A stretch of 49,120 nt of DNA from a virus (lineage: Duplodnaviria; Caudoviricetes): positions 1 through 49,120 of the IMG/VR virus record IMGVR_UViG_3300017754_001496; one strand, written 5' to 3'. The number at the start of each line of letters is the position of its first letter. Position 1 is the stretch's first letter. A program made the translations under genes and the position numbers. Positions 3,545 to 49,120 of this stretch are shown here, one piece after another. The notes under the pieces were generated by a model, which saw only the letters and a program-made list of their open reading frames with translations, was not told the origin of the DNA and did not search any database.

Positions 3545-3954
3545 GAATTGTAAAAAAGGTAAATGTAAATATGTACAGCTGTTCTATTTTATTTGTAGTA
3601 ACAAATGAGATGGGAAAGTCAGAAAAGTATTTACAAAAGAAATATGCAAAAGGAACTCTGATTCCTGGTACTCCTGCTGCAGAAGCAGAGGGTATTACTA
3701 TTACAGTAGATGGTAGTTTATACATTGTAATGATAGATGCAAAGTTTCTTAATCATAATACAATAGGTCATGAGTTATTTCATGTTACTAAGAGAATAAC
3801 AGAAGATAGAGAAATTACAGATGAAGAAACTTCTGCTTGGTTAATGGGATTTTTATGTCAAGAATTCTATGCATTCATAGGTAGTGAGAAAGTAAAAAAA
3901 GAATTTGAAAAAGTAGATAACAAAAATGGCAGAGAATCAGGACAATCAAACTAA
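3541..3954 (+). CDS. Small zincin-like metallopeptidase-fold protein
   Basis: TIGHELFHVT (HExxH, 3769-3783) with a downstream DEETSAWLMG helix that could supply the third ligand Glu. Confidence 0.6.
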   Translation: MRIVKKVNVNMYSCSILFVVTNEMGKSEKYLQKKYAKGTLIPGTPAAEAEGITITVDGSLYIVMIDAKFLNHNTIGHELFHVTKRITEDREITDEETSAWLMGFLCQEFYAFIGSEKVKKEFEKVDNKNGRESGQSN

Positions 3955-6900
3955 TTTAAATAGTGTTAAAACATCATCTTTTAACAAAGGTTTAATAAAG
4001 GATTTTAATGATTCTTTTGTACCAGAGGGTGTATGGATTAATGCTATTAATATGGTTAATGCATCCCATCTTGGAGATGGTGGTGTTATAGGTAATGAGC
4101 CTTCTAATAAATTTTGTGTTCAGGTACCTTATGATATTATTGGAATTGTAAGAAGAGATACTGATACTTGGGTTATATTTTCTACTAATGATGCATTATC
4201 TGAAATTGGATTATTTACAGAATCTACTTGCAGTTATTCTAAAATAGTAACTGCCAAATGTCTTAATTTTAAAAGAAGCAATTTAATTACAGGATACATT
4301 CAATACAACTATGATTGTACTTGGTCTGTGTTTTTTGCTGATGGATTAAATCCAGATAGAGCAATTAATTTAGATAAAATTCCTTATCAAATTATAGGAT
4401 ACTCTGGAACTACAGAATGTCCTGTTCCTATCTACAATGATTGTTTAGATTGTGATGCAACTAGACTTGAATATTTATTAAATCCTCCTTGCTATTCTGT
4501 GCAAAAAGCAATAGGAGCAGGTTCACTTTTAAATGGTTCTTATCAAGCTGTGCTTGCTTATTCTATCAATGGGCAAAGAGTAACTAACTATTTTACACCA
4601 AGTAATGTTTTATCTATGTGGGAACACATAGGAGTGGCTGGAGGATTAGAAATTGTAGTATCTAATATAGACACTAGATTTGAGGAATATGAATTAGTAA
4701 TTGTAAGCACTGTAAAATCTCAAACAGTTGCTCGTAAAATTGGTAATTATAGTACAACACAAACTGTAATTTATATTGATAATTATTCAGAAGCTCTTCC
4801 TTCAGTTGAACTTAGTTTAATTCCATTAGTAAATCCTATCTATGAAAAATGTGATAAGATGTTTTCACTTAGTGGATATTTATTAAGGTCAGGTATCTAC
4901 AGTAAATTTGAATTTAATTATCAACCACTTGCTAATCAGATTGTTACATACTGGCAAGAGATAGAATATCCTGCTGACTATTATTATAAGGGTGGATATA
5001 ATACATCTTATATGAGAGATGAGCAATATCCTTTTTTTATTAGATGGTTATATAATGATGGTGATAAATCAGCTTCATATCATATTCCAGGAAGACCAGC
5101 TATAGGTACTGACTTGAGTATTGTAAACAACAATGATGTTTTAAATTTTGCACAAAATAAAAAGTGGCAGGTGTACAATACAGCATCTGTAACAAATTCT
5201 AATGTAAATGTTACATTACCTGATGGAGGAGTAATTAGACAAGAAGGTTTGATGGGTTATTGGGAATCTGTTGAAAACTATCCAGTTAAACCAGATGTCT
5301 ACAATAGCAATCTAACACCAGGAACTGGTATGCCTTATTTTGCCACTGTTTATTCTGATTATGATTTATGTAGTAAACCAATCAGACACCATAAAATGCC
5401 TGATAATACTATTACACATATTCATGATAATGGAGGTAATAAGATTTATATACTAGGTGTAAAGTTTGATAACATCAAACCTCCTGTAGATAATCAAGGA
5501 AATTTTATAACTAATATTATAGGATTTGAAATATTAAGAGGATCTAGAGAAGGTAACAGAACTGTTATTGCAAAAGGTCTTCTTAATAATTTAAGACAGT
5601 ATAGTAACTCTGGTGCATCTTCTAAACAGATGCTTTATCAAAATTATCCATATAATGATTTAAGAGACGATTATTTTTTAAGAACTTCACTAGCAACTAA
5701 TGGTGAACCTGATAGTGTAGATAATGATAGTAATCCATTAACAGGATATAGAAAAGATTACTTTTCTTTTCATTCACCTGAAACAAACTTTGCAAGACCA
5801 TTTTTAAGTTATGATGAAGTTAAAATATACACAGATGAATATGGTGCAGCGTCTGGAAGTTTTGACTATCCATATGGTCAACCAAAGCAGAAATTAATTA
5901 CTAATGCTTCCTATATAATTGGATTAACCATTGGTTTAGGTATAGGATTAAGAGTAGCATGGGGAGCAAAGAGAAAAGAAGGAGCTGAAGATGCAGGTAA
6001 TCCTTTTGTAGCTACAAGTCAAGGAGCAGCAATAGCAGCAGCTGGTGCATTGAGCCCAGCAACTACAGCAGCAATAGGTACAGCATTAACTGGTACAATT
6101 CCTACTACTATGCTAAGTGAGGGTAAAGTAGGAGCTGGTGCAACTGGATTTGGTTCTAGTATTACTTTACCAATTACTACTCAAGAACCAGGAGATTTAA
6201 CAACTCTTGACTTAGCTTATTATTATCCTGGTGCTACAGGTGCACAATTAAGTAAAGCATTTAGAGCAGTTCTGCAAGCTGCAACTATTACTTATTATGG
6301 TGGTCAAGGATTGGAACAAGTAGTTAAAATTATTTATGAATTAATTCCTTTTAGACAATATGCTTTACAGTATAATTCTCATGGTTATTATGATAATTAT
6401 CAGGCAGTAACTTCTTTAGGAAACATAAGAAGAACTAATAATAAAAGTATTTACATAAAAGATCAGATTCAAAACTTTGATACTACTTTTAATATTAACA
6501 ATCTATATAGAGGTGATTATGTGGCTATTAATATTCAAGGTAGTTTTTCTGATCCATCTGTGGCAGATCAATCTAGAGTAAGAGTAAGAGACACCTCTCT
6601 TACTTTTAATAATCCCATAAATCAAAATGTTTCAACACCTATATCTTCTTACTATGGTGCTTTAAAAATTGATTATCAAAATCAATATGGTCAGTTAGAA
6701 GGTATTGTACAGATACCTGTACATAATTGTTTTGTATCAGCTCTTTTTCCTAAAGCAGGTAAAACATATGAAACACCTACTTTATTTGGAGGAGACATTT
6801 ACATAAACAGATACACTGAAAAAAATCCATTCTTCTTTTTTGTTCAGTGGTTATTCAATGAACCTCCAGGAACTGCATTTGACTACAGTGAGTATAGTAA

Positions 6901-8761
6901 TGTATTGTATCCTAGATATTGGGCTAATTTTGATAAGTTTGATACTAGCTCTATTCAAACACCTACTTTTATTGATATACTAAATGCTACATTGACATTA
7001 AGTGGTAAAAATTTAATGAAGTGGACAAAAGCAGCTAGTTCATATCATCATTTAGATAGAGGTGATGCTACCAATTCATTTCAAGTAACAAATGCATGGT
7101 TCTATCTATTTAATAATGGCATCAGAGATTTCTTTGTTGAGTCAGAAGTTAATCTAGCATTTAGAGACTATGGTGATATAACAAGCCAACGTCATTATGA
7201 TGAAGTTAGTGGATACACTGATGTCAAAGCTTTATTTAGAGCAGATATTATAAAAGCTGGTAATTACTATAAGTATGATTACTCATTGTCTGTAAGCAAG
7301 TTACTATCTAACTATATTACATTTTCTTCTTTATTACCTAGAGACTATAGTCCACAAGTTGCTGAAACTTGTTTTAGTTATTATGAAAGAAGAGTGTTAT
7401 ACAGTCTTCCTCAGCAATCAGAACAAAAGAGAGATTCTTGGAGAATATATCTTCCTAATAACTATAAAGAGTTTGATAACATAATTACTAATGTAAAAGC
7501 TATCAATAAAACAGGTAGTATTATATTATTTAAAGATGCTGAACCTACATCTGTTACAGGAGTTGATCAATTACAAACAAGTCAAGGAGTTAAAATTACT
7601 GTAGGTGATGGTGGATTATTTCAGCAGCCATTCCAAACATTAGTTAATGCAGATGATGAATATGAATATGCATCATGTCAAGACACAAGAAGTGCAGTAA
7701 ACACACCTTATGGATTATTTTGGATTAGTAGAGATACAGGTAAAATTTTAAACTATGCTGGTGGTGCAATTACAGATATTGCAATGAATGGTATGAGAGC
7801 ATGGTTTGCACAATACTTACCTAATATTCTAACTACTCAGTTCCCAGGATTTAAAGCCACTGAAAATACACTTGTTGGAATAGGTTGTCAAACAGTATAT
7901 GACACACAGTATGAATTGTTGTACTTCTGTAAGAGAGATTATAAATCTAAGTCTACTAGTCTGTTATTAAATGAAACAACTCAGGAGTTTTACATTGAAA
8001 AACAAACAGGTATTACAATAATTGAATTAGGAGATCCTGACTATTTTGAAGACTGCTCTTGGACCATTAGCTATGATCCTCAAAATAAGATGTGGTTAAG
8101 CTTCCATGATTGGAAACCTGATTATGTGCTTGGTACAAATTATCATTTCTTTACAATTAAAAATGGTGGATTTTGGAAGCACAATGTATTATGTAATAGC
8201 TATTGTAATTACTATGGTCAGAATTACAATTTTGAAATAGAAATGCCAGTTAATACAGGAGCTACAGTTAATACTATAAAAAGTATAGAATACACATTAG
8301 AAGTTCTTAACTACTCTACAGATTGTATAGATCCTTATCATGTATTAAATGCCAACTTTGATTATGCAATGATTTACAATACAGAGCAGAATTCTGGAAT
8401 TTTAAACTTATATTTGAAACCATATAGCCCTGTAGAATTGTTACAATATCCTAAAGTTCAAACTGATTCAATAGATATTCTTTTCTCTAAAGAAGAGAAT
8501 AAGTATAGATTTAATCAGTTCTGGGATGCAACAAGAGACAGGGGAGAATTCTCAGGTAATCAATTCAGGATGTTCAACACAGAACAGAATGGATACAGAA
8601 AATATTTAAATCCTAATTACATTAACTATAGCAAATCACCACTAGAAAGAAAGAAGTTTAGACATTATGGTAACAGACTTATCTTAGGTAGGTATGTATC
8701 TGAAAATCTTAAGTTCAACTTGAAGGTGAGCAATGCTAAAGAAACACTAAGTCCACGATGA
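3926..8761 (+). CDS. Tail stabilisation / muzzle protein (P22 gp10-like, crAss Tstab), 1611 aa
   Basis: SFNKGLIKD...NEPSNKFC start, YMRDEQYPFFIRW, IRHHKMPD, FGGDIYINRY, WTISYDPQNKMWLSFHDWKP. It is beta-rich and directly follows Ttub. Confidence 0.82.
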   Translation: MAENQDNQTNLNSVKTSSFNKGLIKDFNDSFVPEGVWINAINMVNASHLGDGGVIGNEPSNKFCVQVPYDIIGIVRRDTDTWVIFSTNDALSEIGLFTESTCSYSKIVTAKCLNFKRSNLITGYIQYNYDCTWSVFFADGLNPDRAINLDKIPYQIIGYSGTTECPVPIYNDCLDCDATRLEYLLNPPCYSVQKAIGAGSLLNGSYQAVLAYSINGQRVTNYFTPSNVLSMWEHIGVAGGLEIVVSNIDTRFEEYELVIVSTVKSQTVARKIGNYSTTQTVIYIDNYSEALPSVELSLIPLVNPIYEKCDKMFSLSGYLLRSGIYSKFEFNYQPLANQIVTYWQEIEYPADYYYKGGYNTSYMRDEQYPFFIRWLYNDGDKSASYHIPGRPAIGTDLSIVNNNDVLNFAQNKKWQVYNTASVTNSNVNVTLPDGGVIRQEGLMGYWESVENYPVKPDVYNSNLTPGTGMPYFATVYSDYDLCSKPIRHHKMPDNTITHIHDNGGNKIYILGVKFDNIKPPVDNQGNFITNIIGFEILRGSREGNRTVIAKGLLNNLRQYSNSGASSKQMLYQNYPYNDLRDDYFLRTSLATNGEPDSVDNDSNPLTGYRKDYFSFHSPETNFARPFLSYDEVKIYTDEYGAASGSFDYPYGQPKQKLITNASYIIGLTIGLGIGLRVAWGAKRKEGAEDAGNPFVATSQGAAIAAAGALSPATTAAIGTALTGTIPTTMLSEGKVGAGATGFGSSITLPITTQEPGDLTTLDLAYYYPGATGAQLSKAFRAVLQAATITYYGGQGLEQVVKIIYELIPFRQYALQYNSHGYYDNYQAVTSLGNIRRTNNKSIYIKDQIQNFDTTFNINNLYRGDYVAINIQGSFSDPSVADQSRVRVRDTSLTFNNPINQNVSTPISSYYGALKIDYQNQYGQLEGIVQIPVHNCFVSALFPKAGKTYETPTLFGGDIYINRYTEKNPFFFFVQWLFNEPPGTAFDYSEYSNVLYPRYWANFDKFDTSSIQTPTFIDILNATLTLSGKNLMKWTKAASSYHHLDRGDATNSFQVTNAWFYLFNNGIRDFFVESEVNLAFRDYGDITSQRHYDEVSGYTDVKALFRADIIKAGNYYKYDYSLSVSKLLSNYITFSSLLPRDYSPQVAETCFSYYERRVLYSLPQQSEQKRDSWRIYLPNNYKEFDNIITNVKAINKTGSIILFKDAEPTSVTGVDQLQTSQGVKITVGDGGLFQQPFQTLVNADDEYEYASCQDTRSAVNTPYGLFWISRDTGKILNYAGGAITDIAMNGMRAWFAQYLPNILTTQFPGFKATENTLVGIGCQTVYDTQYELLYFCKRDYKSKSTSLLLNETTQEFYIEKQTGITIIELGDPDYFEDCSWTISYDPQNKMWLSFHDWKPDYVLGTNYHFFTIKNGGFWKHNVLCNSYCNYYGQNYNFEIEMPVNTGATVNTIKSIEYTLEVLNYSTDCIDPYHVLNANFDYAMIYNTEQNSGILNLYLKPYSPVELLQYPKVQTDSIDILFSKEENKYRFNQFWDATRDRGEFSGNQFRMFNTEQNGYRKYLNPNYINYSKSPLERKKFRHYGNRLILGRYVSENLKFNLKVSNAKETLSPR

Positions 8762-11700
8762 AAACTGACAAACTTCTTCACATACTTACTCAGCATCAGA
8801 AAGGAGGTAAGAAGCCTGCTGTTAAAGCTAAGCCTACTTCCAAGCCTGCTCCTAAACCTGCTGAAAAAAATCCTTACAAAGAAATAAATGCAACTCCTGC
8901 TAACATATTTAGAGCAGCAGTTCCTCTTCCTGGAAATGTATCTCAGATGTTAGCAAAGCAACTTTTCAGTGATGCTAGAATGAATAACTCTTCACTAACA
9001 GATGAACAAAAAATTATTCTATGGAACACTATACAAAATGCTAAAAAAAGAAGTGGTGCAGTTAATGGTGGAACAGAGTATGTAGATTATGGTAATCAAG
9101 GATATGGTACACCAGATGAATTTAATAATTGGTTTAATAGAGGATCTGCTGGGTTAGCAGGTACTGTATATAACAGTTTGATGAATCCAGGATTTAATTT
9201 AGCATCTACTATTGGTAGAGGTAGATACTGGACTGATGAAAAAGATCCTGATACAATATACTATACAGATGTATATGATTGGAATCCTGGAGAAAGTAAC
9301 TTCAAAGGTTCAAACACTTATCAGCAGGTTAGAAACTATGTAAGAAGTACAGAAGATAAGAATCTTAATGCAGATAAGAATGAAAATTATAGAATGCAAT
9401 TTAAGCTTTCTAAAGCAGACATTGATGCAATTAATAAAAAACGTGAACAAAGAACTTTTTTAGATCAAAGATTTATAGATGCTGGTCCTAAGTATCAACA
9501 TGGTGGTTCTGCTCGTCATTTTTTACAACCTAATGATTCTAAATTAATAGAAGGATACGCTATTCCTTCTATTATGCCAAGTACTGAGTTGGCTACATCT
9601 ATTGGTGGGGAAGGTGGAGAACCTGCTTACTTAGTACCTTCATTTAAATATGGATATCCTTTGGCTAATCCAGAAGATGAATTTTATAATACAGGGGATT
9701 ATTTGGGTGGACCTTTTAAAACATGGCAAGAAGCTGATAAATGGGATAGAGAGATAAGACATCCTTATGTAGAAAAAGGGCAACCTATTCCATCACCTTT
9801 GAAGTGGTGGGGAAAAGGATATCAACTTGGTGGAAGTTCAATTCAACAACAATTAATAAATCAAGCATTAGGGCAAAACAATGCAGCTAGTGTAAGAGAT
9901 CAAGTTGCAAGTACAGCATATCCTCAAGTTTCTCAAGCAGTTGTTAAGAAAAAACAAAATGAGCAAGAGCAAAGTGATATCAAAAAATATGGTAGTCTTG
10001 AAAAAGCAGCCCAAGCAAAAGCTATTAAAAACTCACAAGCTGCTCAAAAAGAATCTGTAATATCTACTCCTAAACTTGGGCAGCCTGGTTATGAATATTA
10101 TAATCCTGAACAAGGTGAATACAGAGATGACAAAACAGTAGCACCTGAAGGATCAATACTTGCAAACATGCAGGGAAATCTAAATGCATATAATGAGTTT
10201 GTTAGTAATCAAACTAGTTTGCTTCAAAATTTATCTGGACCAGTGAGAGCAGTTGGAGCAGTTGGAGCACTTGCTTCAGATATATTTGTAAATGGTCCTA
10301 TTCAATCTGCACTTAATATTGGAAATACTGTTGCAGGTAATAGACCTCTTAGAGGTGATGAAGATTTTGGTAATCTTTTCTTTGATGCCTTTAATGCTAT
10401 GCCTGTTTTTTCTTCTTTAACTAAAGGAGCAAAAGCTTTTAATCAAGCAAGTAAACTTGCTAGTGAAGCAGCATTCTCTCCAACATTTGGTATCATGCCT
10501 GGTGCAGTGCAAGAAGGATTAGAATCAAGTTCTAGATTCTTAAAGAAAACTCCTGTATCTATACCAGGGGGTGTAAAAAAAGGAGCTGATGATGTGATTT
10601 CAGGAAATTTATTTGAAGAAGGTATCATTAGAATGGATGAGGCTGACATGCCTATAACAGATATTATGTTAGGTCATGCGTCTATTCCTGCTAATATGAC
10701 TGGGGTAAAATTTGTTAAAGATGCTTTACAAGCTGATCCAGTATTAAAAAGAGAAATTGCAACTATTGTAAGAGACTTAAATAAAGACTATGGATTAACC
10801 CTTGATTTTAGAACAATTGATTCAATGGAAGAATTGCAGAAAATTAAAGAGAGTGCTATAGACTTTTTACAATCTTCTGATCCAAGAGCTGTTAATGCAA
10901 GAGGTCTTTTTACTGAAAAACTTCAACAAACTGATGCTAATGCATTAAGAGCAGATATCAATACAAGACATATAAAACTAGATCAATTAAATAAAAAGAA
11001 GAAGGAGCTTGGTGCAGAAATGGTTGGTCTAAACAGAAATGATCCTAAGATAAGAGTCATACAAGATGAGATAACAAAAATTAATGATCAAATAAGAACC
11101 ACTGTACATAATCCTACTGAGATAATTTTTCCTAGTGGAATTAAGTATGAAGGTAAAACTCAAATGACATCAAAAGGTCCTGTTGCAGATGTAAAAATTA
11201 CTTCTGTAAAACCTGGAGTAGATGGTCTACTTAAAATTAGTGGAGATGAGCCAAATCTTTTTAATCATTTTTATTTTGTGTCAGGTGACTTAAATTATAC
11301 TCAATCTGAATTAAATAGATTAAGAGCATTACCAAACCCAGATCAAGCTGATTTAGATAAGATTGCACGTCTAGAACAAAAGATAACAGATTCTTTGATG
11401 GCATCTGGTGAAATGTTTAAAGTATCTACAATGAATGCTCCAAAAGGAACAGTGGTTACAGAAACAAGCATGTCTAGTGATTCTTATGGAATGCTTTGGA
11501 ATATGGGTAAAACTACAGCTGGTAAGAAAACACCTTACAAATTATTAACTCCTGCTGAATTTTCACAATATGATTCTTTAAAGGATAACTGGTCTTACAT
11601 GCTTGATGGTCCTACTCAAGTTAGTATGTCAGAACAATTAGCAAGAGGAGAGACAGCAGGTATACCATTAGTTCTTCCATATAGATCACCTAATACTATG

Positions 11701-12711
11701 GGATATGCAGAAGGTATTGGTAAGAGAGCACCTAATCCAAATGCTGTAGGTATTAAAACTTTGCATGGAAATTATCTTACTTCAGTGGATGAAGTAGCAT
11801 TAGGTGTTAACACTCAAAATAATTTATTTGAGACAGCTAACAAAACATTTGAATACCAACTTGCTAATGGAAGAATTAGTCAAGAATTTTATGATGCAAA
11901 TATTATAAAGTGGTATGAAGATCCATTGAATCCTAAGAATACAAACTTAACCACTACAGCTCCAAAAGTATCAGCAAGTGAGTTAGCTAATCTTAATCCT
12001 GAAATAAAAAAGAGATTTGCTCCTGTTCAAGTTCCTGATGACACTCATTTAAATAGTCCTATTTTTATAGATCGTAATACAAAAAGTAAAAGTTGGGTAG
12101 GAATGGATGGAAAAAACTCTCCACTTGTATATAAGTATTTAGGTATTGGTAATAGTCCTGGAGATTTTTCAACATTTAATAATGGTGCAAATAATACATA
12201 CTTCCAACAAGCTATTCCAACATTTAAAAAGGAATGGAAGAAAGGTGGATTAGTAAGAGCACAAGAAGGGCGAACTATATCTAATAATTCTTTTAGAGAA
12301 GGACATGAATTAACACATAATCCTTACTTTAATTCTAATAACATACAAACTGTTTTAGATGCTGCTCAGTTTGTTCCTGTATTAGGGCAAGCTGCTTATG
12401 TTGCAGGTATTCCATTTACATTAAAAGATATGTATAATGATTATCTTAAAAATGACTATACACAAATGGGGATAGATGCAATGGGTTTGATCCCTACATT
12501 TAAAGCTTTTAAATATGCAGCAAAAGGTGATAAAGTATTAGATTCAACAAGTAAGTTAGCAAAACAATTAAGAAAAGCAAACACTGCAATTAATACAGGA
12601 AACCTTGTAAATGATGCAACTAAAAAAGCAAAAGGTGGATCTACTTCTAAAAAATCAAATGCTGAACAACAATACTTTCAACTACTAATTAATCAGAAAA
12701 ATAAAAAATAA
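8758..12711 (+). CDS. Modular putative virion cargo protein A (1317 aa), segmented by GG motifs
   Basis: Long ORF coupled by ATGA to the muzzle gene. HQKGG, YQHGG, YQLGG, WKKGG/AQEG and KAKGG separate unrelated segments. The last segment resembles a pre-toxin helical hairpin. Confidence 0.6.
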   Translation: MKTDKLLHILTQHQKGGKKPAVKAKPTSKPAPKPAEKNPYKEINATPANIFRAAVPLPGNVSQMLAKQLFSDARMNNSSLTDEQKIILWNTIQNAKKRSGAVNGGTEYVDYGNQGYGTPDEFNNWFNRGSAGLAGTVYNSLMNPGFNLASTIGRGRYWTDEKDPDTIYYTDVYDWNPGESNFKGSNTYQQVRNYVRSTEDKNLNADKNENYRMQFKLSKADIDAINKKREQRTFLDQRFIDAGPKYQHGGSARHFLQPNDSKLIEGYAIPSIMPSTELATSIGGEGGEPAYLVPSFKYGYPLANPEDEFYNTGDYLGGPFKTWQEADKWDREIRHPYVEKGQPIPSPLKWWGKGYQLGGSSIQQQLINQALGQNNAASVRDQVASTAYPQVSQAVVKKKQNEQEQSDIKKYGSLEKAAQAKAIKNSQAAQKESVISTPKLGQPGYEYYNPEQGEYRDDKTVAPEGSILANMQGNLNAYNEFVSNQTSLLQNLSGPVRAVGAVGALASDIFVNGPIQSALNIGNTVAGNRPLRGDEDFGNLFFDAFNAMPVFSSLTKGAKAFNQASKLASEAAFSPTFGIMPGAVQEGLESSSRFLKKTPVSIPGGVKKGADDVISGNLFEEGIIRMDEADMPITDIMLGHASIPANMTGVKFVKDALQADPVLKREIATIVRDLNKDYGLTLDFRTIDSMEELQKIKESAIDFLQSSDPRAVNARGLFTEKLQQTDANALRADINTRHIKLDQLNKKKKELGAEMVGLNRNDPKIRVIQDEITKINDQIRTTVHNPTEIIFPSGIKYEGKTQMTSKGPVADVKITSVKPGVDGLLKISGDEPNLFNHFYFVSGDLNYTQSELNRLRALPNPDQADLDKIARLEQKITDSLMASGEMFKVSTMNAPKGTVVTETSMSSDSYGMLWNMGKTTAGKKTPYKLLTPAEFSQYDSLKDNWSYMLDGPTQVSMSEQLARGETAGIPLVLPYRSPNTMGYAEGIGKRAPNPNAVGIKTLHGNYLTSVDEVALGVNTQNNLFETANKTFEYQLANGRISQEFYDANIIKWYEDPLNPKNTNLTTTAPKVSASELANLNPEIKKRFAPVQVPDDTHLNSPIFIDRNTKSKSWVGMDGKNSPLVYKYLGIGNSPGDFSTFNNGANNTYFQQAIPTFKKEWKKGGLVRAQEGRTISNNSFREGHELTHNPYFNSNNIQTVLDAAQFVPVLGQAAYVAGIPFTLKDMYNDYLKNDYTQMGIDAMGLIPTFKAFKYAAKGDKVLDSTSKLAKQLRKANTAINTGNLVNDATKKAKGGSTSKKSNAEQQYFQLLINQKNKK
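9493..9833 (+). repeat. Near-perfect 14-bp in-frame direct repeat flanking a 109-codon unit
   Basis: TATCAACATGGTGG at 9493-9506 and TATCAACTTGGTGG at 9820-9833 (13/14), encoding YQHGG and YQLGG. Confidence 0.6.
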
Positions 12712-12712
12712 A

Positions 12713-15700
12713 ATGAAAGAATTTAAATCTATTATAACTCATCCTGAGGGTCAGAATTTATTTCCAAATCAGATTACAGCAATTGAAGGATATCCACATG
12801 GTACATCTATTACTATGAAGAATACTAAACCACAAATTGCAATAACTCCTTATGGAGCATCTTATATGCAACCAGATATGGATTATAAATTTGCTGGTAG
12901 TACAGTAGTTGAATTACCTCAAGCTCAAATGGGTGGACAGGATCAGCAACAACAGTTGATGCAGATGATTCAGATGTATGCTGAAATGAAAGGTATGAAA
13001 CCTGAAGAGTTAATTCAGAAAATACAATCACTTCCTCAAGATCAACAGCAACAAGCTATTCAATCTATTGCTCAAGAAGTGCAGCAAGTAATGGCTCAGC
13101 AACAACAAGCTCAGCAACAGCAAGGCCCAGAAGGTATGGGTCAGGAAGAACAAATGATGGAGCAAGGAATGATGAGTTATGGTGGAGAACCTTGTATTGA
13201 ATGTTTTGATAATTATAATCCATCTCCACAAGCACAAGATTTAAATTGGTATTACAAAGCTACAGGTGGTGAAGCATTTCCACAGGCTAATATGTATCCT
13301 AAAGACTGGGCTAGTTATTCAGGTAATCAGTATCAAATAGGTAGACAAACTGGAATGTATCCTCAAAATAATCCTTTATTTTCAGATTTGTATAGTTCTT
13401 CTGATAGAGAAGATATGCTTATGAATTTATTTAATTCAGGTAAAGTTTCTTTAGGTCAGCTACCTAAAAAATTACAAATGCAAGAAACTTTTACTAATAA
13501 TGCATTTAACAATATGCTATCTGGTACTCCTGGTAGTGATGGTGTCTATAGAAATTATGAAATAGGAGGAGAAGCTTTTCCTCAAGCTCAAACATATTTA
13601 CCTTATGATAGAGCAGGTGAGACTAGACCTAACTTTATGTTTCAAGCAGGTGGGCGAAAAGAAGAATATGGTCCATATAAAGATTCTGCACCAGGTGGAG
13701 CAGGTCGTCAGTTAATGACACCTGAGCAATTTAGACAGGGTATGAAACAATACTCAGATGCTGCAACTAATTATGGTAAAAATAATTTATCAGAAGAAGA
13801 TTATGCAAAGTTAAATGATTTACAATTAAACTTACTTCAGCATATGACATATGATTCTGATAAATTACAAGATAGTAGTTGGCGTGATTGGATGAATATG
13901 ACTACAGCTCCAATTGTAAATCCAGCAAGACGTTTTTTTAATCAAACATTTGACACTCACTTTCAAGCAGGTGGTCAATCTGATATTGATAAAATTTATC
14001 AAATTATGAAGAAGGGTGGTATGGACTTAAATCCTAGAAAGAAGAAAGGAGGTAAGTTTAATCATCTAGATGATTTTCAAAAGTATATTAAAGGTGAGAA
14101 GAAAGGAAATAAATTCCAAGAGGGTGGTGAGGAAAATACAGATGGTTTAAACTTTGAAGGTATGTTTGAAGATCCATATGAAAATGCATCCCAGCATTTA
14201 CAAGAAGATTTTTATGACTTAGCATATGATATTAATGATGGATATACAGGTTCTGATAAATCTAAAGTTGATAACAATAGTAATAAAACTGATAATAATA
14301 GTAATACTGCTGAGAATTATCAAAAAGGAAAAAGAAGTTCTTATGATAAAATGATGCAAGCTAATGCATTAAATGGAGCAGCTGCCATGACAGGCAACAA
14401 AGGATTGTTTGGAGCAATAGCTGCTGTTAATAATATAGGTAGAGCTGTTGGAGCTGCTGCTCAAGGTTGGAGTCACCCAGGTAGAGCGTTTGGAAGACAA
14501 TCTAAAAAAGAGACACCAGTCTACGGAAAAGGATTCAATAGACTAGAGAATTCTGATATGATGCAAAATGGAGTTGGTCCAAAACCTGAGTCAACACTTA
14601 ATAAAAGTGTACCTGCTTTAGATAAGGATAGATATAATCTTAATCAAAATGATGTATATGATTATAGCAACATTTCTGGAAGTACACAAATGCAGGGTGG
14701 TGGTAATACACAAGATCCTAGATTTGTTGAGTATGATAGATTTGCAAACAGAGGAAAAAATAATGGAATAGGTGATATTTTTGGACAAGATAAAAGGAAG
14801 TATGCTAGTGTTGGACAAAAAGAAGGAAAGCCTAAAAGACGTAAACCTACAGGATCGTGTGTAGATGGAAGGTGCTATGAATTTCAGGATGGAGGTCCTT
14901 ATGTTTATGTAAGCCCTAATCAATCTGATAGTTATTTTAATCCACTGAGTGGAGATATCTATTTAAATGAAGATCAATCTCATATCCCAGGGGTTTTACC
15001 ACATGAGATGCATCATTATGATCAATGGGTAAATGGAAAATTCAAAGTACCTGGTGGTGCATACATGGGAGAAGAAAATTTACCTGAATCATTAAATCCT
15101 TATCTTCCTTTAATGATGCCATCTATAGTAAGAGACCAGAGCTTTGAAGGGGAGATGCCTTACTATAATAGAAGACCTATTGAACAAGTAGCAATGACAA
15201 ATGATTTCTTGTCTAGTAATCCTTCTTTTAGTTTAGTTGATCAAGGGTTAGTTTATGATAAAGCTGTTAATCCTTCTTTGTATATGAATCCTTATACATT
15301 AGAAGGAGAAGCTCAGATAGTAGGTGATCAATATATGGGTCCTTTCCAAAGAGGCGGAGGATTACCTAAACATCAATCTTGGATAAGTCAAGTTGGAAAA
15401 CATTGGCAAGATCAGTTCAGTCCTAATAATGCAACAGCTAATCAAATAGTTAATAAACAAGTAAAGGGAGCTGATCCAAATGAAAAATGGAGTGGAGAAC
15501 CTGATTTTGCATTAGGTGATAGCTTAGTTGCAGGTTTAGGTCAAGCCGCAGACTATATTGGTAACTTTAAAAGAAGAAACTCACCTGATAAAGATAAAGA
15601 AAGACGTAACATCAAAACATCTGAATTTATGGATGTAGCTCAATTTGGCGGAGGTCAGTATGGTGATTGGTCTACTAATGCAACTCAGGGTACATCTTTC

Positions 15701-15907
15701 AGACCTGATGAAATGGTATATGCTCAGAAGATGGGAAGACCTTACAAAGATGTCAATGTATTTGATTATCCTACATATGACTTTAAAGACATGTTCCAAT
15801 CAGGAGGAAGTGTATTAGATAATTATGATGAAGATGGAGAATATGATTTAACTCAAGAAGAAATTGATGAAATTATTGCTGCAGGTGGAACTATTGAATA
15901 TCTTTGA
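12713..15907 (+). CDS. Modular putative virion cargo protein B (1064 aa) with about 15 GG motifs, a Gln-rich tract and a zincin module
   Basis: AQMGG, MSYGG, KATGG, YEIGG, FQAGG x2, MKKGG, KKKGG, FQEGG, MQGGG, FQDGG, FQRGG, AQFGG, FQSGG. HEMHH lies at 15002-15016 and a Q-rich tract at about 12938-13170. Confidence 0.62.
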   Translation: MKEFKSIITHPEGQNLFPNQITAIEGYPHGTSITMKNTKPQIAITPYGASYMQPDMDYKFAGSTVVELPQAQMGGQDQQQQLMQMIQMYAEMKGMKPEELIQKIQSLPQDQQQQAIQSIAQEVQQVMAQQQQAQQQQGPEGMGQEEQMMEQGMMSYGGEPCIECFDNYNPSPQAQDLNWYYKATGGEAFPQANMYPKDWASYSGNQYQIGRQTGMYPQNNPLFSDLYSSSDREDMLMNLFNSGKVSLGQLPKKLQMQETFTNNAFNNMLSGTPGSDGVYRNYEIGGEAFPQAQTYLPYDRAGETRPNFMFQAGGRKEEYGPYKDSAPGGAGRQLMTPEQFRQGMKQYSDAATNYGKNNLSEEDYAKLNDLQLNLLQHMTYDSDKLQDSSWRDWMNMTTAPIVNPARRFFNQTFDTHFQAGGQSDIDKIYQIMKKGGMDLNPRKKKGGKFNHLDDFQKYIKGEKKGNKFQEGGEENTDGLNFEGMFEDPYENASQHLQEDFYDLAYDINDGYTGSDKSKVDNNSNKTDNNSNTAENYQKGKRSSYDKMMQANALNGAAAMTGNKGLFGAIAAVNNIGRAVGAAAQGWSHPGRAFGRQSKKETPVYGKGFNRLENSDMMQNGVGPKPESTLNKSVPALDKDRYNLNQNDVYDYSNISGSTQMQGGGNTQDPRFVEYDRFANRGKNNGIGDIFGQDKRKYASVGQKEGKPKRRKPTGSCVDGRCYEFQDGGPYVYVSPNQSDSYFNPLSGDIYLNEDQSHIPGVLPHEMHHYDQWVNGKFKVPGGAYMGEENLPESLNPYLPLMMPSIVRDQSFEGEMPYYNRRPIEQVAMTNDFLSSNPSFSLVDQGLVYDKAVNPSLYMNPYTLEGEAQIVGDQYMGPFQRGGGLPKHQSWISQVGKHWQDQFSPNNATANQIVNKQVKGADPNEKWSGEPDFALGDSLVAGLGQAADYIGNFKRRNSPDKDKERRNIKTSEFMDVAQFGGGQYGDWSTNATQGTSFRPDEMVYAQKMGRPYKDVNVFDYPTYDFKDMFQSGGSVLDNYDEDGEYDLTQEEIDEIIAAGGTIEYL
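13265..13588 (+). repeat. Duplicated peptide GGEAFPQA
   Basis: GGTGGTGAAGCATTTCCACAGGCT at 13265 and GGAGGAGAAGCTTTTCCTCAAGCT at 13565 encode the identical peptide with only synonymous differences. Confidence 0.75.
13640..13974 (+). repeat. Perfect 14-bp in-frame direct repeat flanking a 107-codon unit
   Basis: TTTCAAGCAGGTGG at 13640-13653 and 13961-13974, both encoding FQAGG. Confidence 0.75.
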
Positions 15908-15921
15908 TATGTCATAAAAAA

Positions 15922-15934
15922 TGATTAAATTTAA
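15922..15934 (+). promoter_or_regulatory. Degenerate copy of the candidate late-promoter motif
   Basis: TGATTAAATTTAA (10/13 to the 615-627 motif) in the 64-bp AT-rich gap before the gene at 15972. Confidence 0.2.
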
Positions 15935-15971
15935 ATGTATAGTATTTACTAAAGATAAATTTTAAAAGTTT

Positions 15972-18900
15972 ATGAAAGTAAAAGTGAAAAAAACCAGAGG
16001 TGTCACTGGAAATCAACATAACTATGGCTTAGTAACAGGTAGTATCTGGAACTATGAAGATAAGCCAACCACTAATACAGTTGGTACAACATTATCTCCT
16101 GTACCAAGAGAAGAAGCTAATATAGAAGCTGAGAAGAATGAAACAATAGTGTACCCTGATAAAGATGGTATGCTTGCTCATTCTAAAATTGGTGGAAAGA
16201 GACATGCTCAAGGTGGTACTCCACTTAATGTTCCTGATGGATCTTTTGTATTCTCTGACTTCAGAGGAATGAACATAAAGAACAAAGAGCTTTTAAAGAA
16301 CATCTTTAATATGAATACCAACAAAGCTGTTACTCCAGCAGATATAGCTAAGAGGTATGAGATTAATTATTACAAAGAAGTCCTAAAAGATCCTTGGGCT
16401 GATCCTATGGATAAGAAGACAGCACAGGCCATGATTGAAAACAACATGAGAAAGCTTGGCCAACTTGCTCTTATTCAAGAAGGTATGAAAGGATTTCCTG
16501 ATGGTATTCCTGATATTGCCCTTCCTTTAATGGGTAGTGATATTGCTCATGGTCAACCTTCTCCACAACCTGAAGAAGAACAACAAGAACAACCACAAGC
16601 TCAAAAGGGTAAGCAGGTTAAAAAAACTCCTCCAGCTAAATCATCTGGTCCTACCATGAAAGACATGGAGCGTTACAGATTAATGATGATGCAGAAAGCT
16701 GTAGCAGAAGGTAATGCTAATATGTCTATGGGTGAATGGGAAAACATGTATAGTCCTAGAGGAACTCAGGATCAAATTGCACCTACAGAATCAAGATGGT
16801 TTGATGATGCAATGTTAGGACTTACACATCCTTTTGCAACATTAATGTCTATGGGGGATCGTACAGGTTCTTGGCAATCTTATGTAAAAGAACATGGTAA
16901 TAATCCAATTGACATGGCTTTAAATGGTGTAGCAACAGCATATGCACTTGGACCTAAATATTTTCAACAAGCACCTGCCTTGTTGCAATCAGCATCCCAA
17001 CTTAAGAATGCTAATAATTTAAGAAATGCTGCTGTGCTATATGATATGCTAGGGATAAATCATAATCCAGTATATAATAAACCTGTAAAACAAATAGGTG
17101 GACTGACACGTGCGCAGATAGGTATGCAAACTAATGAAAGAGGTATCCCAAATATGGTAGGTAATAAAACAATGCTACCTGATACCACTAAAACAAAAGT
17201 AGCAAACACTACACAAACTCCTCCTCCTGAAGGAAAAAGTTGGTGGGATTCAAGTGTAGATTTTTTCAATGAACATAGATTTCCTGTTCTTTATGGTGCT
17301 GGAGAATTAATATATCAAGGTGCTAAACGCTTTAGTCCAGATTTTTCAGCACTTATTGAAAAGTTTAAAGGTTATAAACTTGCTGATAAACTTAAAGCAC
17401 TTGGTAAAGGTGCTAAATGGTTAACAATGGAAAATCCTGTTGGAAGAATGGCATTAATGTTTGGAGCTGATTATGCTATAGATTACTTTTTTCCTGATGC
17501 CGATGAAAAAACTAAACAGCAATTAAAAAATGAAGCAAAAACAGTTGATGAAGCTATTAAACAAGCACAACAAGCACAACAACAAAATCCATACAGTACA
17601 CCAGGACCTAATCCTTTTACAGGAAATAATCCTACACAAAGAACTATTGTATTAGATAGTACTCCAAAAGCAGTTGTTGATACTACAAAAGTAGTGGTAC
17701 AACCTAAACCTAAAGTAACTAGTTCTACAAATTTACAAAAATCTAAATCATCTAATAGTTCAGGTTCTACATCAAGTCAAAGTTCTAATAATAGTGGGGC
17801 ATATGTAAAAAAAGGTGATCCTGCAAATTATGCAGGAACATACAATCGTGCTAAGGATAGTGTAGTAGTTAAAAAGAAACAAACAGGTGGTTCAATAAGT
17901 AGATATCAAACTGGAGGATTTGATATAGAAAGAGCAGAAGGAGCAAAGAGAGCAGATGAAAAAGGTTTTTATATGAAAAGACCTGCTTACTTTGATTATA
18001 CTTCAGAAGTTGGTGATCAAAACCCAAATAGCGGAGATTATGTAAGACAAGATGGTGTTATCATACCTGCTGTAAAAGATAAATCAGGAAATAAAACAGC
18101 TGTTCCTTGGAGTTACACTGATCCTAAAACAGGACAAACAACTACATACAAAGGAGTTGATGATATAGTTAGTTTTGCTGATCCATACATAAACTTTAAA
18201 AACTATAGAGCAGGAGAAGATATAGGTGAGGATGAAATGGGAGTTGATGCATGGAAAAAAGATTTAGCAAGTACAGATGAGGCAACACGCAGAAGAGCTG
18301 GAGACTTTTATGTAAGCAAGTTAAATGAATATAATGCTAACATTCTTGGTGATCCTACTTATGAAACTATTGTTACTAAAAATCCTGATGGTACTGAAAA
18401 GAGAGGCTATTGGGAAATAGGTACTAACAATGCACAGCAAGGATTCTTTGAACCATATGTAAAAGAAGAAGTAGAAGAAAAAGAGAAAGAAGAAGAGAAG
18501 AAAACTAAAACAGAAGTAGGTACACCTGAAAGAGCTCAGTATGAGGAAGGAATAGCAGGTTCTCCTTGGTGGAACTATGATGTAGTTAATTATGCTAATC
18601 AATTAGGAAATTACTTTAACATTGAACCAGGTAATCTTCCTGCTTATATGCAATACAGTCCTTACTTAGCAGATCCTACTTTCTTAGATCCTGCTAGAGC
18701 TATTGCTCAACAACAAGGATTAGCTAGACAATCTCAGGAAGCTATTATGTCTGGAGCAGATCCATCAGTTGGTAGAGCAAATGTAATCGCAGCACAAGCA
18801 CAAGCTGCTCCACAGGTTGCTAATATCATGGCTCAGTATGATCAGAATAATGTTGGTATTGCAAATCAATATGGTCAACAGGCTGCTCAAACAATGAATC

Positions 18901-19322
18901 AAGCTCAGTTGCAAAACATGCAAATGAAAAAGCAATATCTTGATGAACTTGAAACAAGAAGACAACAATATGAGAATGCATTAGCTCAAGGTAGAACAAA
19001 TGTTTCTCAGTCTGTTATGCAAGCTATGAAGAATGCAGCTGAAACTTCTTGGATGAATGCTACATCAGATAGTTATTCTGTAGATCCATCAACAGGTAGA
19101 ATATATTTCAAACGAGGATTTGATCCTGCTACTGGTACATACAGAGGTAAGCAACAAAATGATGCTGATTTATTAAGAATGTATATGAGTGACCCTTATA
19201 ACTTAGATAAAGATGATGCAATAGATATGATTGTTGGAAGAAGACGCAAAAAATCAGATGATGATACTAAACAGATGGGTGGTATGTTATATAATCCTAT
19301 GGATGTTATTTGGAATTATTAA
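15972..19322 (+). CDS. crAss-like cargo protein 1-type virion protein (1116 aa)
   Basis: N-terminal NIEAEKNETIV...IGGKRHAQGGTPLNVPDGSFVFSD domain typical of crAss-like cargo proteins. The central region is variable with KQIGG/KQTGG/YQTGG. The C-terminus is a Q/A/N-rich helical region ending KQMGG. Confidence 0.65.
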   Translation: MKVKVKKTRGVTGNQHNYGLVTGSIWNYEDKPTTNTVGTTLSPVPREEANIEAEKNETIVYPDKDGMLAHSKIGGKRHAQGGTPLNVPDGSFVFSDFRGMNIKNKELLKNIFNMNTNKAVTPADIAKRYEINYYKEVLKDPWADPMDKKTAQAMIENNMRKLGQLALIQEGMKGFPDGIPDIALPLMGSDIAHGQPSPQPEEEQQEQPQAQKGKQVKKTPPAKSSGPTMKDMERYRLMMMQKAVAEGNANMSMGEWENMYSPRGTQDQIAPTESRWFDDAMLGLTHPFATLMSMGDRTGSWQSYVKEHGNNPIDMALNGVATAYALGPKYFQQAPALLQSASQLKNANNLRNAAVLYDMLGINHNPVYNKPVKQIGGLTRAQIGMQTNERGIPNMVGNKTMLPDTTKTKVANTTQTPPPEGKSWWDSSVDFFNEHRFPVLYGAGELIYQGAKRFSPDFSALIEKFKGYKLADKLKALGKGAKWLTMENPVGRMALMFGADYAIDYFFPDADEKTKQQLKNEAKTVDEAIKQAQQAQQQNPYSTPGPNPFTGNNPTQRTIVLDSTPKAVVDTTKVVVQPKPKVTSSTNLQKSKSSNSSGSTSSQSSNNSGAYVKKGDPANYAGTYNRAKDSVVVKKKQTGGSISRYQTGGFDIERAEGAKRADEKGFYMKRPAYFDYTSEVGDQNPNSGDYVRQDGVIIPAVKDKSGNKTAVPWSYTDPKTGQTTTYKGVDDIVSFADPYINFKNYRAGEDIGEDEMGVDAWKKDLASTDEATRRRAGDFYVSKLNEYNANILGDPTYETIVTKNPDGTEKRGYWEIGTNNAQQGFFEPYVKEEVEEKEKEEEKKTKTEVGTPERAQYEEGIAGSPWWNYDVVNYANQLGNYFNIEPGNLPAYMQYSPYLADPTFLDPARAIAQQQGLARQSQEAIMSGADPSVGRANVIAAQAQAAPQVANIMAQYDQNNVGIANQYGQQAAQTMNQAQLQNMQMKKQYLDELETRRQQYENALAQGRTNVSQSVMQAMKNAAETSWMNATSDSYSVDPSTGRIYFKRGFDPATGTYRGKQQNDADLLRMYMSDPYNLDKDDAIDMIVGRRRKKSDDDTKQMGGMLYNPMDVIWNY

Positions 19323-45407: not shown

Positions 45408-45557
45408 ATGGCTAAAACTAAATCAAGTAACAGCATAGTTAAAAGGTTCATTAAGAAAGCTAAAGTCAGAAGACCAGGGGTTCATTCTAAGAAGAAAACT
45501 AGTGGTTTAAAGACTAGCAAGAACTATAAGAAACTTTATAACAGACAAGGCAAATGA
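45408..45557 (+). CDS. Small basic protein, 49 aa (absent from the ORF track)
   Basis: MAKTKSSNSIVKRFIKKAKVRRPGVHSKKKTSGLKTSKNYKKLYNRQGK*. It fills the gap and overlaps the next gene by ATGA. Confidence 0.75.
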   Translation: MAKTKSSNSIVKRFIKKAKVRRPGVHSKKKTSGLKTSKNYKKLYNRQGK

Positions 45558-47223: not shown

Positions 47224-47373
47224 ATGGCAAAAGCAGGACTTTACGCAAACATCCATGCAAAGAGAGCTAGAATAGCTGCAGGCAGTGGAGAAAAAATGAG
47301 AAAAGTAGGGGCTAAAGGAGCACCTACATCTAAACAATTTAAACAAGCTGCTAAGACAGCAAAGAAAAAGTAA
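47224..47373 (+). CDS. Small basic protein, 49 aa (absent from the ORF track)
   Basis: MAKAGLYANIHAKRARIAAGSGEKMRKVGAKGAPTSKQFKQAAKTAKKK*. TAATG-coupled to the next gene; resembles a widespread small phage protein. Confidence 0.8.
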   Translation: MAKAGLYANIHAKRARIAAGSGEKMRKVGAKGAPTSKQFKQAAKTAKKK

Positions 47374-47618
47374 TGGCAACTAGAAAGAAAGTTTCAGCTG
47401 ATGGTGAGAAACATGTGATTTATAAGAAGACTAGTCCTACAGGAGTAGGTAAAGGTAAGAAAGGTCACATTATGGTTAATCATCCAACTAAAGATAAAGG
47501 TAAGTGGGATACTATTGACCTTACTCAAAAGGCAGGAGCTAAAACAGTGGCTCAAGGAGCTGCTGCTACAAGAAAGTGGCACAAAGAAAATCCTTATAAA
47601 AAGACAAAAAAGAAATAA
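47373..47618 (+). CDS. Small basic hypothetical protein (81 aa)
   Basis: Lys-rich ORF in the coding strand with a coupled start. Confidence 0.7.
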   Translation: MATRKKVSADGEKHVIYKKTSPTGVGKGKKGHIMVNHPTKDKGKWDTIDLTQKAGAKTVAQGAAATRKWHKENPYKKTKKK

Positions 47619-49021: not shown

Positions 49022-49120
49022 ATGGCAAAATCACCAGCTTGGCAAAGAAAAGAAGGCAAGTCTGCTAGTGGCGGACTTAATGCTAAAGGTAGAGCATCAT
49101 ACAATAGAGCTAACCCTGGG
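49022..49120 (+). CDS. Small basic phage protein, DUF6321-like, 3'-truncated
   Basis: MAKSPAWQRKEGKSASGGLNAKGRASYNRANPG..., recalled as a common phage family and not verified. Confidence 0.65.
   Translation, partial: MAKSPAWQRKEGKSASGGLNAKGRASYNRANPG

Follow-up and report, generated by a model that had tools for sequence, protein, structure and literature searches.

A Gly-Gly seam motif delimits exchangeable cassettes in crassvirus cargo-block proteins and may mark a maturation cleavage site

We analyzed three adjacent genes, designated A, B, and C, in a 49,120-nucleotide stretch of phage DNA (Duplodnaviria; Caudoviricetes; positions 1 to 49,120 of IMG/VR record IMGVR_UViG_3300017754_001496), hereafter the window, which spans a virus record estimated to be 39% complete. 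The products of these genes are punctuated by a short pentapeptide ending in Gly-Gly, hereafter the seam motif, at which entire cassettes have been inserted, deleted, or transferred from gene to gene. The products themselves are likely packed into the virus particle. The seams are genuine, recur across the clade, and constitute an apparently undescribed grammar of cassettes within a protein class already known; no description of them was found in the full-text literature, with most subscription papers and the Yutin 2018 and 2021 genome papers lying outside the scope of that search. The motif is a probable recognition site of a maturation protease that would free the cassettes in these crassvirus cargo-block proteins, a reading to which we assign a probability of about 0.5. 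The three genes are as follows (aa, amino acids).

8758..12711, plus strand: gene A, 1317 aa, with five seams at 8794, 9493, 9820, 12235, and 12625.
12713..15907, plus strand: gene B, 1064 aa, with 14 seams.
15972..19322, plus strand: gene C, 1116 aa, a homologue of the crassvirus cargo protein C1 (gp45), with four seams (17088, 17877, 17904, and 19269) plus GK variants.

All 15 pentapeptides quoted in the initial annotation of this DNA translate exactly at the positions quoted. The annotation had also stated that the motif is rare in the adjacent muzzle and giant genes and had proposed an enrichment test, and shuffle counts for each open reading frame (ORF) bore this out. Its pattern, [FYAMKWH][QKE]xGG, occurs 4, 12, and 4 times in ORFs A, B, and C versus 0.44, 0.69, and 0.43 times expected (1000 shuffles each), while it is absent from the muzzle-like gene, gene D, and the giant ORFs 22117-27051 and 38646-45392 and occurs once in ORF 27048-38639 (0.61 expected). 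A broader pattern, chosen after the data had been seen, gives 5 + 14 + 5 = 24 motifs in A, B, and C, one of which (HAQGG at 16203) is part of a conserved domain rather than a seam. The signal resides in the residues preceding GG, since plain GG shows no enrichment in A (10 versus 8.3) or C (6 versus 7.1). The window segments range from 9 to 805 aa, in line with the earlier description of segments from a few residues to about 800 aa.

The enrichment was reproduced in related phages. The window and 82 related loci were dereplicated into 53 clusters, and out-of-sample motif counts were made on the 52 relatives without the window. The motif [M/Y/F/A/K/H]-[A/K/Q/E/R]-x-G-G was found 404 times versus 50 expected (8-fold) in the 110 A- or B-position proteins of these relatives and 117 times versus 25 expected in their 52 C proteins, where in-domain GG accounts for part of the count; the flanking genes gave 5 versus 6 (muzzle), 4 versus 10 (D), and 6 versus 23 (next giant). 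Among 120 C homologues taken from a protein collection, a sample that in part overlaps the loci, a slightly wider pattern was counted 327 times versus 84 expected. A mixture model assigned 59% of 1991 GG sites to the motif, with M/Y/A/F/K/H at position -3, A/K/Q/E/R at -2, a loose -1, two strict glycines, and little preference downstream. The information content amounts to 1.25 and 0.80 bits at positions -3 and -2 before GG and is low after it. A strong upstream score was followed by GG 379 times versus 15 expected; the corresponding figures for the next residue pair were 19 versus 8.

The role of the seams as cassette borders was assessed by alignments in which all GG sites had been masked. 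Among 1533 internal alignment ends, 479 fell within 15 aa of a motif versus 253 ± 16 by chance, and the ends were directional: alignments ended before a motif in 272 cases versus 57 and started after a motif in 216 versus 95. A sham-mask control gave 192 and 141 versus about 250, although the sham sites were set away from GG and the control is hence biased low. Four close B homologues revealed three clean seam-to-seam indels (B aa 315-421, 212-286, and 665-728), and the zincin-like segment B aa 729-882 was found in gene C of locus L001 (55% identity) and in an A-position gene of locus L025 (38%). Module boundaries in homologues thus track the motif, by both the masked alignment ends and the B indels, as the initial annotation had proposed for examination. 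Gene D, a motif-free internal control, aligned over its full length with five of the first nine loci (30-42% identity), whereas gene A had no match in the same nine. The motif before a cassette end travels with the cassette (0.33 identity, 35 clusters) more than the motif before a cassette start (0.24, 39 clusters; random 0.15). Some cassettes comprise as few as 9-15 aa between two seams. A DNA cassette system such as an integron or shufflon was rejected, there being no conserved DNA recombination sites at the seams. The principal cassettes of A and B are listed below.

8809..9507, plus strand: A cassette, aa 18-250; aa 38-230 match a motif-flanked cassette in a B-position gene of locus L057 at 68% identity.
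9508..9834, plus strand: A cassette, aa 251-359; aa 254-347 match aa 101-194 of a gene in locus L089 at 68% identity.
9835..12249, plus strand: A cassette, aa 360-1164 (805 aa), mosaic within; aa 370-592 match L025 at 44%.
12250..12639, plus strand: A cassette, aa 1165-1294, with HELTH at aa 1183 (12304-12318); neither a homologue nor a Pfam match was found for it.
12713..12937, plus strand: B cassette, aa 1-75, a conserved module present in 26 of the 53 loci.
13346..13570, plus strand: B cassette, aa 212-286, preceded by the degenerate seam YQIGR; missing from three of the four close B homologues.
13655..13975, plus strand: B cassette, aa 315-421, flanked by two FQAGG; missing exactly seam to seam in three of the four close B homologues.
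14705..14896, plus strand: B cassette, aa 665-728; missing from one of the four close B homologues.
14897..15358, plus strand: zincin-like B cassette, aa 729-882, with HEMHH at 15002-15016 (aa 764) and a conserved Glu at 15302.
15809..15904, plus strand: acidic C-terminal module of B, aa 1033-1064; its family stands at the C-terminal end in 23 loci and a related family in 13.

Genes A-C occupy the crassvirus cargo block, and C is homologous to C1/gp45, in agreement with the cargo role suggested earlier. Gene C follows the muzzle gene and precedes D (at the C2 position) and the giant RNA-polymerase genes, and the window order of muzzle, cargo, and RNA-polymerase genes is the order in crAss001. 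Two parts of C are conserved.

16071..16541, plus strand: C1 compact (portal-binding) domain, C aa 34-190, identified by structure, profile, and ESM Atlas matches.
17919..19283, plus strand: conserved C-terminal cassette of C, of a family present in 51 of the 53 loci.

The AlphaFold 2 model of C aa 34-190 had a mean confidence (pLDDT) of 92, and the same residues matched the profile of the gut C1 compact domain (hhalign probability 87%, E 4e-6). Structural comparison with residues 426-548 of gp45 (7qog_M) gave VIA Z 5.2, a root-mean-square deviation of 4.5, and 96 aligned residues; this Z is middling, yet the match was the only top row to cover the whole compact domain. ESM Atlas linked the domain to PF25725 clusters (0.92, 168/256 features), and it also matched structural proteins of phi4:1 and Fpv3. 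The PF25725 hidden Markov model, PDB sequence searches, and Foldseek against PDB did not link C to gp45. Gene C thus carries the portal-binding domain of C1 and is a C1-domain homologue rather than a full equivalent of gp45, because it lacks the N-terminal transmembrane helix: no 19-aa hydropathy window of C exceeds 1.2, and A and B have weak windows (1.22 and 1.26).

The seams recur in gp45 itself, as FDTGG, SAYGG, FAEGG, KAFGG, AKDGG, NAFGG, FAYGG, and KAKGG. By position-specific scoring matrix gp45 has 4 motifs versus 0.65 expected (8 versus 1.3 by a pattern widened after inspection), while the counts for the nine other crAss001 proteins tested are 0-1. Loci L007 and L085 contain cassettes that match two of those in gp45 (E 3e-9 and 2e-9), and the C1 protein of DAC15 shares one cassette with the gp45 set and carries it twice in tandem between seams. 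In phi14:2 the parts of C1 are split over two genes, g070 and g069 (L191:6764-9922), both annotated from virion tandem mass spectrometry; g070 holds the compact domain and two HExxH segments with AAMGG between them.

The loci yielded 941 segments of at least 18 aa (median 88), which fell into 377 clusters, 262 of them confined to one locus. Pfam named 19 of 238 cassettes of relatives, comprising 9 of 111 multi-locus representatives and 10 of 127 single-locus segments of at least 120 aa. The names included the wall enzymes amidase, lysozyme, M23, and three L,D-transpeptidase domains (one with LysM), as well as His phosphatase, SET, ADP-ribosyltransferase, DUF5872 (twice), DUF5754, DUF3597 (twice), and weaker others; none of the 16 window cassettes matched Pfam at E ≤ 0.001. 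Among 414 segments of 25-110 aa, 88 were strongly basic and 68 strongly acidic. The A/B/C proteins contain 39 HExxH motifs, distributed over 26 of the 53 loci, versus 1.1 in shuffles. The load therefore seems to resemble a collection of small core-type proteins with wall enzymes and zincins more closely than a set of anti-host effectors. Of the swappable set of small effectors proposed earlier, the swapping at seams stood, whereas the term effectors was overstated, given 19 of 238 Pfam-named cassettes that are mainly wall enzymes and small basic DUFs. In one locus the two halves of DUF5872 form separate motif-flanked cassettes (L091:7702-7824 and L091:7020-7265).

The zincin of the initial annotation was supported in part, by HEMHH and the downstream conserved Glu and by a Pfam Tox-MPTase4 match that lies below the cut-off (E 0.008), while its fold was not, as the predicted model was poor (pLDDT 49) and had no PDB match. 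This cassette has no stand-alone homologue among proteins of similar length and does not align with the zincins of phi14:2 g070. The pre-toxin-like hairpin noted earlier was unconfirmed, with no Pfam match at E ≤ 1. HExxH also occurs as HEGFH at aa 1017 of the polymerase-bearing giant 27048-38639; either this site or the HELTH in A could belong to a candidate processing enzyme.

C probably docks on the portal as gp45 does, and A and B are probably loaded with C, perhaps because the tail of one product pairs with the head of its neighbor. If the seams are cut during maturation, the products would be core proteins of small size and basic character, together with wall hydrolases, zincins, and segments stored in the tail, and new cassettes would spread by in-frame recombination at the seam, because a cassette would need only a seam for loading and release. 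The scissile bond could lie after the GG or before the motif.

Several observations argue for cleavage, among them the cassette borders at the motif described above. The motif profile, with its information upstream of a strict GG, is protease-like, and D plus the next giant contain slightly fewer motifs than predicted from their GG counts (23 versus 36, p 0.011). Two pieces of gp45 are resolved, a tail piece (residues 214-245) and a portal piece (425-552); they lie 420 Å apart (PMC10172136) and belong to different cassettes. In the C1 proteins of cr116 and cr108, which are without inserts, just one motif separates the N-terminal part from the compact domain, so that no linker remains to cover the 420-Å portal-tail distance. 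Some cassettes have free-standing counterparts: genome G001 encodes a basic 50-aa protein that is 84% identical to a cassette following MAQGG in locus L027 (16 matches), and 5 of 228 small ORFs, representing four distinct genes and including the 81-aa window gene at 47373, match cargo genes. The last motif lies within 35 aa of the C-terminal end in 75 of 112 complete A/B proteins versus 22 expected, and none of the 112 A/B or 53 C proteins ends in the motif; a last motif near but never at the end points to a detachable tail. The latter fact also ruled out a ubiquitin-like terminal GG in the primary products. All four gp45 peptides cited in the main text of the structure paper (79-101, 181-190, 275-300, and 307-320) lie within cassettes, a count that covers these peptides and not the full peptide map (PMC10172136).

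We further re-searched the matrix-assisted laser desorption/ionization (MALDI) peak lists of Shkoporov et al. (supplement 8 of PMC6235969), which represent 13 gel bands, against 30 crAss001 proteins with shuffled decoys, after removal of contaminant masses. Clear identifications were obtained in 10 of the 13 bands: bands 3-9 gave gp47 and gp50, gp49 and gp44, the portal, gp26 and gp22, gp22 and gp25, gp25, and gp23, and bands 11-13 gave the capsid, gp36, and gp29. The portal (93 kDa, 12 copies) had 10 matches versus 1.5, whereas gp45 (90.8 kDa, 12 portal-bound copies, 26 fully cut peptides in range) remained at decoy level in all 13 bands, including the four that held 87-97 kDa proteins (1, 2, 2, and 0 matches versus 1.1, 2.8, 2.6, and 0.5 in bands 5-8). 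The largest bands, 1 and 2, matched the ring protein gp34 and the muzzle gp44 rather than a giant protein, as if from cross-linked tail parts.

Other results weigh against maturation cleavage or limit its reach. The absence of gp45 from the gel is weak evidence, because the motif-free gp46 was likewise missed in all 13 bands and band 10 had only 5 usable peaks; only 13 bands had been cut out for MALDI. The portal-bound gp45 model begins at A425 and includes N-A-F-G-G-W whole from the A to the W (the aligned range starts at 426), so this GG is uncut after G428 in the particles that were modeled; as a guess, a cut just before the A of A-F-G-G would reconcile the intact GG with cleavage. The protease PF02902 (Ulp1/C48) was found in none of five genomes, and a Pfam scan detected no peptidase family among the 79 proteins shared by two complete relatives. 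Over half of these 79 proteins had no Pfam match at all, the scan left out the 3700-aa giant, the cargo genes, the muzzle, and two ring genes, and clan CE families other than PF02902 were covered only through it. The scaffold-position and capsid proteins lack the motif, and capsid peptides in the re-search span residues 8-493; the motif is thus not a general prohead site. Two thirds of the alignment ends lie away from any motif, non-motif GG sites are also somewhat enriched near alignment ends (350 versus 266), and the match of the 805-aa A cassette to L025 stops far from any motif, the cassette being a mosaic without seams. GK and GR variants persist at seams. The likely virion location of A and B is deduced from gene position.

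The seam could instead be an uncut handle or hinge, with a strand and turn docking on the portal wing, the C1 domain, or a loading chaperone, or easing the threading of whole proteins through portal and tail. This is possible but rather unlikely. In the portal-bound gp45 domain A-F-G-G stands first and is ordered, all seven gut C1 domains aligned have a similar pentapeptide at this place, gp45 was modeled by its authors as one chain (PMC10172136), and the protease searches in the five genomes and the 79 shared proteins were negative. However, just one of the roughly eight seams of gp45 falls in the modeled range, the cassettes of 9-15 aa and the free-standing homologues are easier explained by cutting, and full-length gp45 was not seen in the MALDI re-search. 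The crAss001 capsid asymmetric unit consists only of gp32, gp36, gp21, and gp29 and holds no cargo peptide, which also disfavors the capsid-docking tag that had been suggested as an alternative to cleavage. The proteins might also be packed whole and cut no earlier than ejection, either by a zincin among the cargo or by a protease of the host; wall hydrolases would then be freed in the periplasm and the other pieces in the cytoplasm. The intact GG in the resting virion and the abundance of HExxH over shuffles fit this timing; Iyer et al. propose that zincins process polyvalent proteins either within the head or once transfer has taken place (PMC5512222), and the phi14:2 polymerase preprint mentions a zincin in a co-packed giant protein. 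We nevertheless regard it as improbable, since gp45 lacks HExxH, as do the fetched regions of 27 of the 53 loci, and the full-length gp45 expected on a virion gel was not detected.

Least probable, and in our view very unlikely, is that the seam represents a DNA microhomology scar of cassette recombination devoid of protein function. A crossover at the GG codons would make the end motif travel with its cassette more than the start motif, as observed, and GGT encodes the first seam Gly at 74% of 825 sites, versus 58% of all Gly codons. On the other hand, a repeat search found no DNA repeat family covering the seams, both Gly positions use all four codons, the -3 residues M, Y, F, A, K, and H share no codon, and the frame is always kept. 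The GGT excess yields GGTGG, which may aid recombination or reflect codon context.

The ends of the cargo genes showed a further regularity. Gene A has a 17-aa leader and a 23-aa basic tail, and gene C has a basic N-terminal strand (MKVKVKK) and a 12-aa tail. Across 112 gene junctions in the related loci, the gene downstream of an acidic tail module opened with a basic M-K-[V/I]-[K/R]-I strand at 30 of 39 junctions, versus 17 of 73 otherwise (p 6e-8, with rough patterns); the window example, at 15809-15992, comprises the B tail and the C head. This suggests from sequence that a domain split across the stop codon may chain B to C, a reading weakened by the fact that tail and head are DNA neighbors, for which joint inheritance is expected anyway. 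One acidic tail had a sub-threshold match to the C-terminal half of DUF7210. Other tail types also occur with fixed heads, e.g., ..WLxKY/N* with MKxEFLKIAGV...

A lookalike of the motif was found in lambda-type tape-measure proteins. Lambda gpH (L100:1043-3604) contains FATGG at 733, YATGG at 778, and MRDGG near its C-terminal end. Matches to gpH in translated searches (tblastn) start at Y745, after a Gly-rich stretch, so that the first motif lies outside them, and the block after this motif was matched in 1239 phage records; 80 near-identical lambda gpH loci were left out of the analysis as uninformative. In all 10 tape-measure regions picked among the matches listed, a similar pentapeptide stands just upstream of the YEPAG block, outside the match, and 7 of the 10 have a second copy after the block. 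The form in L100 and L181-L190 is [F/Y]-[A/S]-x-G-G before, and often after, the YEPAG-GE block. According to PMC12617516, gpH loses about 14 kDa from its Gly-rich region, with site and enzyme stated there as unknown in 2025; a cut at the first gpH motif would remove 12.2-12.7 kDa. T5 pb2 is also cut (bioRxiv 2022.09.20.507954). Homology between the YEPAG-GE module and C1 was not significant (hhalign score 16 versus a shuffled maximum of 14.6; E 0.037 against gut C1 and 0.16 against this clade). It is a doubtful, if attractive, extension that aromatic/Met-x-x-Gly-Gly constitutes one processing signal of ejected podo- and siphophage virion proteins, with one protease cutting crassvirus cargo and tape-measure proteins (gpH near F733-A-T-G-G); the crAss-like version would then be an open loading system, in which seam-bearing small genes are packed and released and cargo genes are chained to the portal by split-domain couplers. 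In Arthrobacter phage EvenBluerMoon, YAGGG stands ahead of a segment that by eye resembles an M23 peptidase.

Gly-Gly sites between products are familiar from other viruses. African swine fever virus (ASFV) pp220/pp62 and adenovirus precursors are cut by clan CE proteases at a strict Gly-Gly with an upstream preference. The cargo proteins resemble them in the recurrent strict GG between products and in core proteins made as a chain, but no PF02902 protease was found in the five genomes, the cassettes are variable and move between genes, and their cleavage is inferred. Leaders of the C39 type carry one N-terminal site, with a hydrophobic residue four before the cut, and are processed by an ABC transporter-peptidase. 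A double-glycine leader of this type was rejected for the seams, which are many and internal, with the hydrophobic residue five before the GG end and no such transporter in the window or core set. The closest known protein is crassvirus C1 (gp45, PDB 7QOG chain M, PF25725; Bayfield et al. 2023, PMC10172136), which shares gene position, compact domain, seams, and cassettes; in the window, by comparison, the cargo block has three genes and 24 motifs, the compact domain is N-terminal, and C is without a hydrophobic membrane segment. The gp45 structure paper describes no motif or cassette in the parts available, and its main text does not contain "cleav" (PMC10172136). Polyvalent proteins (Iyer et al. 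2017, PMC5512222) likewise combine unrelated domains in a chain, with frequent zincins, wall hydrolases, ADP-ribosyltransferase, and proposed processing, whereas the cassettes described here are mostly small and not enzymes, and the portions of PMC5512222 consulted mention neither a junction motif nor crAss-like phages. For giant cargo proteins, but not for C1, zincin processing is suggested in the part of the phi14:2 polymerase preprint consulted. Lambda and siphophage tape-measure proteins are similarly ejected and bear GG pentapeptides, and gpH is cut near them (PMC12617516). New here are the MALDI test, the lookalike tape-measure motif, and the tail-head pairing of adjacent genes.

Crassviruses dominate the human gut virome. 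In the published model the C1 cargo is threaded as one chain over the 420 Å from portal to tail (PMC10172136); if the seams are cut, this model would change and the pieces resolved by cryo-electron microscopy would be separate products. The seam offers a rule for splitting about 1850 unannotated proteins of the C compact-domain family, plus their neighbors, into units, and might allow proteins of choice to be loaded into a Bacteroidota phage, while its lookalike is a concrete candidate for the gpH cleavage site left unassigned in PMC12617516.

The remaining features of the window are listed below.

3926..8761, plus strand: muzzle-like gene, PHROG 37948/15100 virion structural protein, following the ring genes PF25702 and PF24228; no motifs.
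19332..22106, plus strand: gene D, 924 aa, placed at the C2 position by gene order; no motif.
22117-27051, 27048-38639, and 38646-45392: three giant genes, with the DFDID polymerase motif at aa 2626 of ORF 27048-38639.
47373..47618, plus strand: free-standing basic gene, 81 aa, with 59% identity to a stretch of a cargo gene in locus L083.

The muzzle-like gene has a hydrophobic Gly/Ala-rich insertion at aa 657-720 (19-aa hydropathy 1.63). Small Lys-rich free-standing genes, one of them DUF6321-like, cluster after the giants at 45408-45557, 47224-47618, and 49022-49120.

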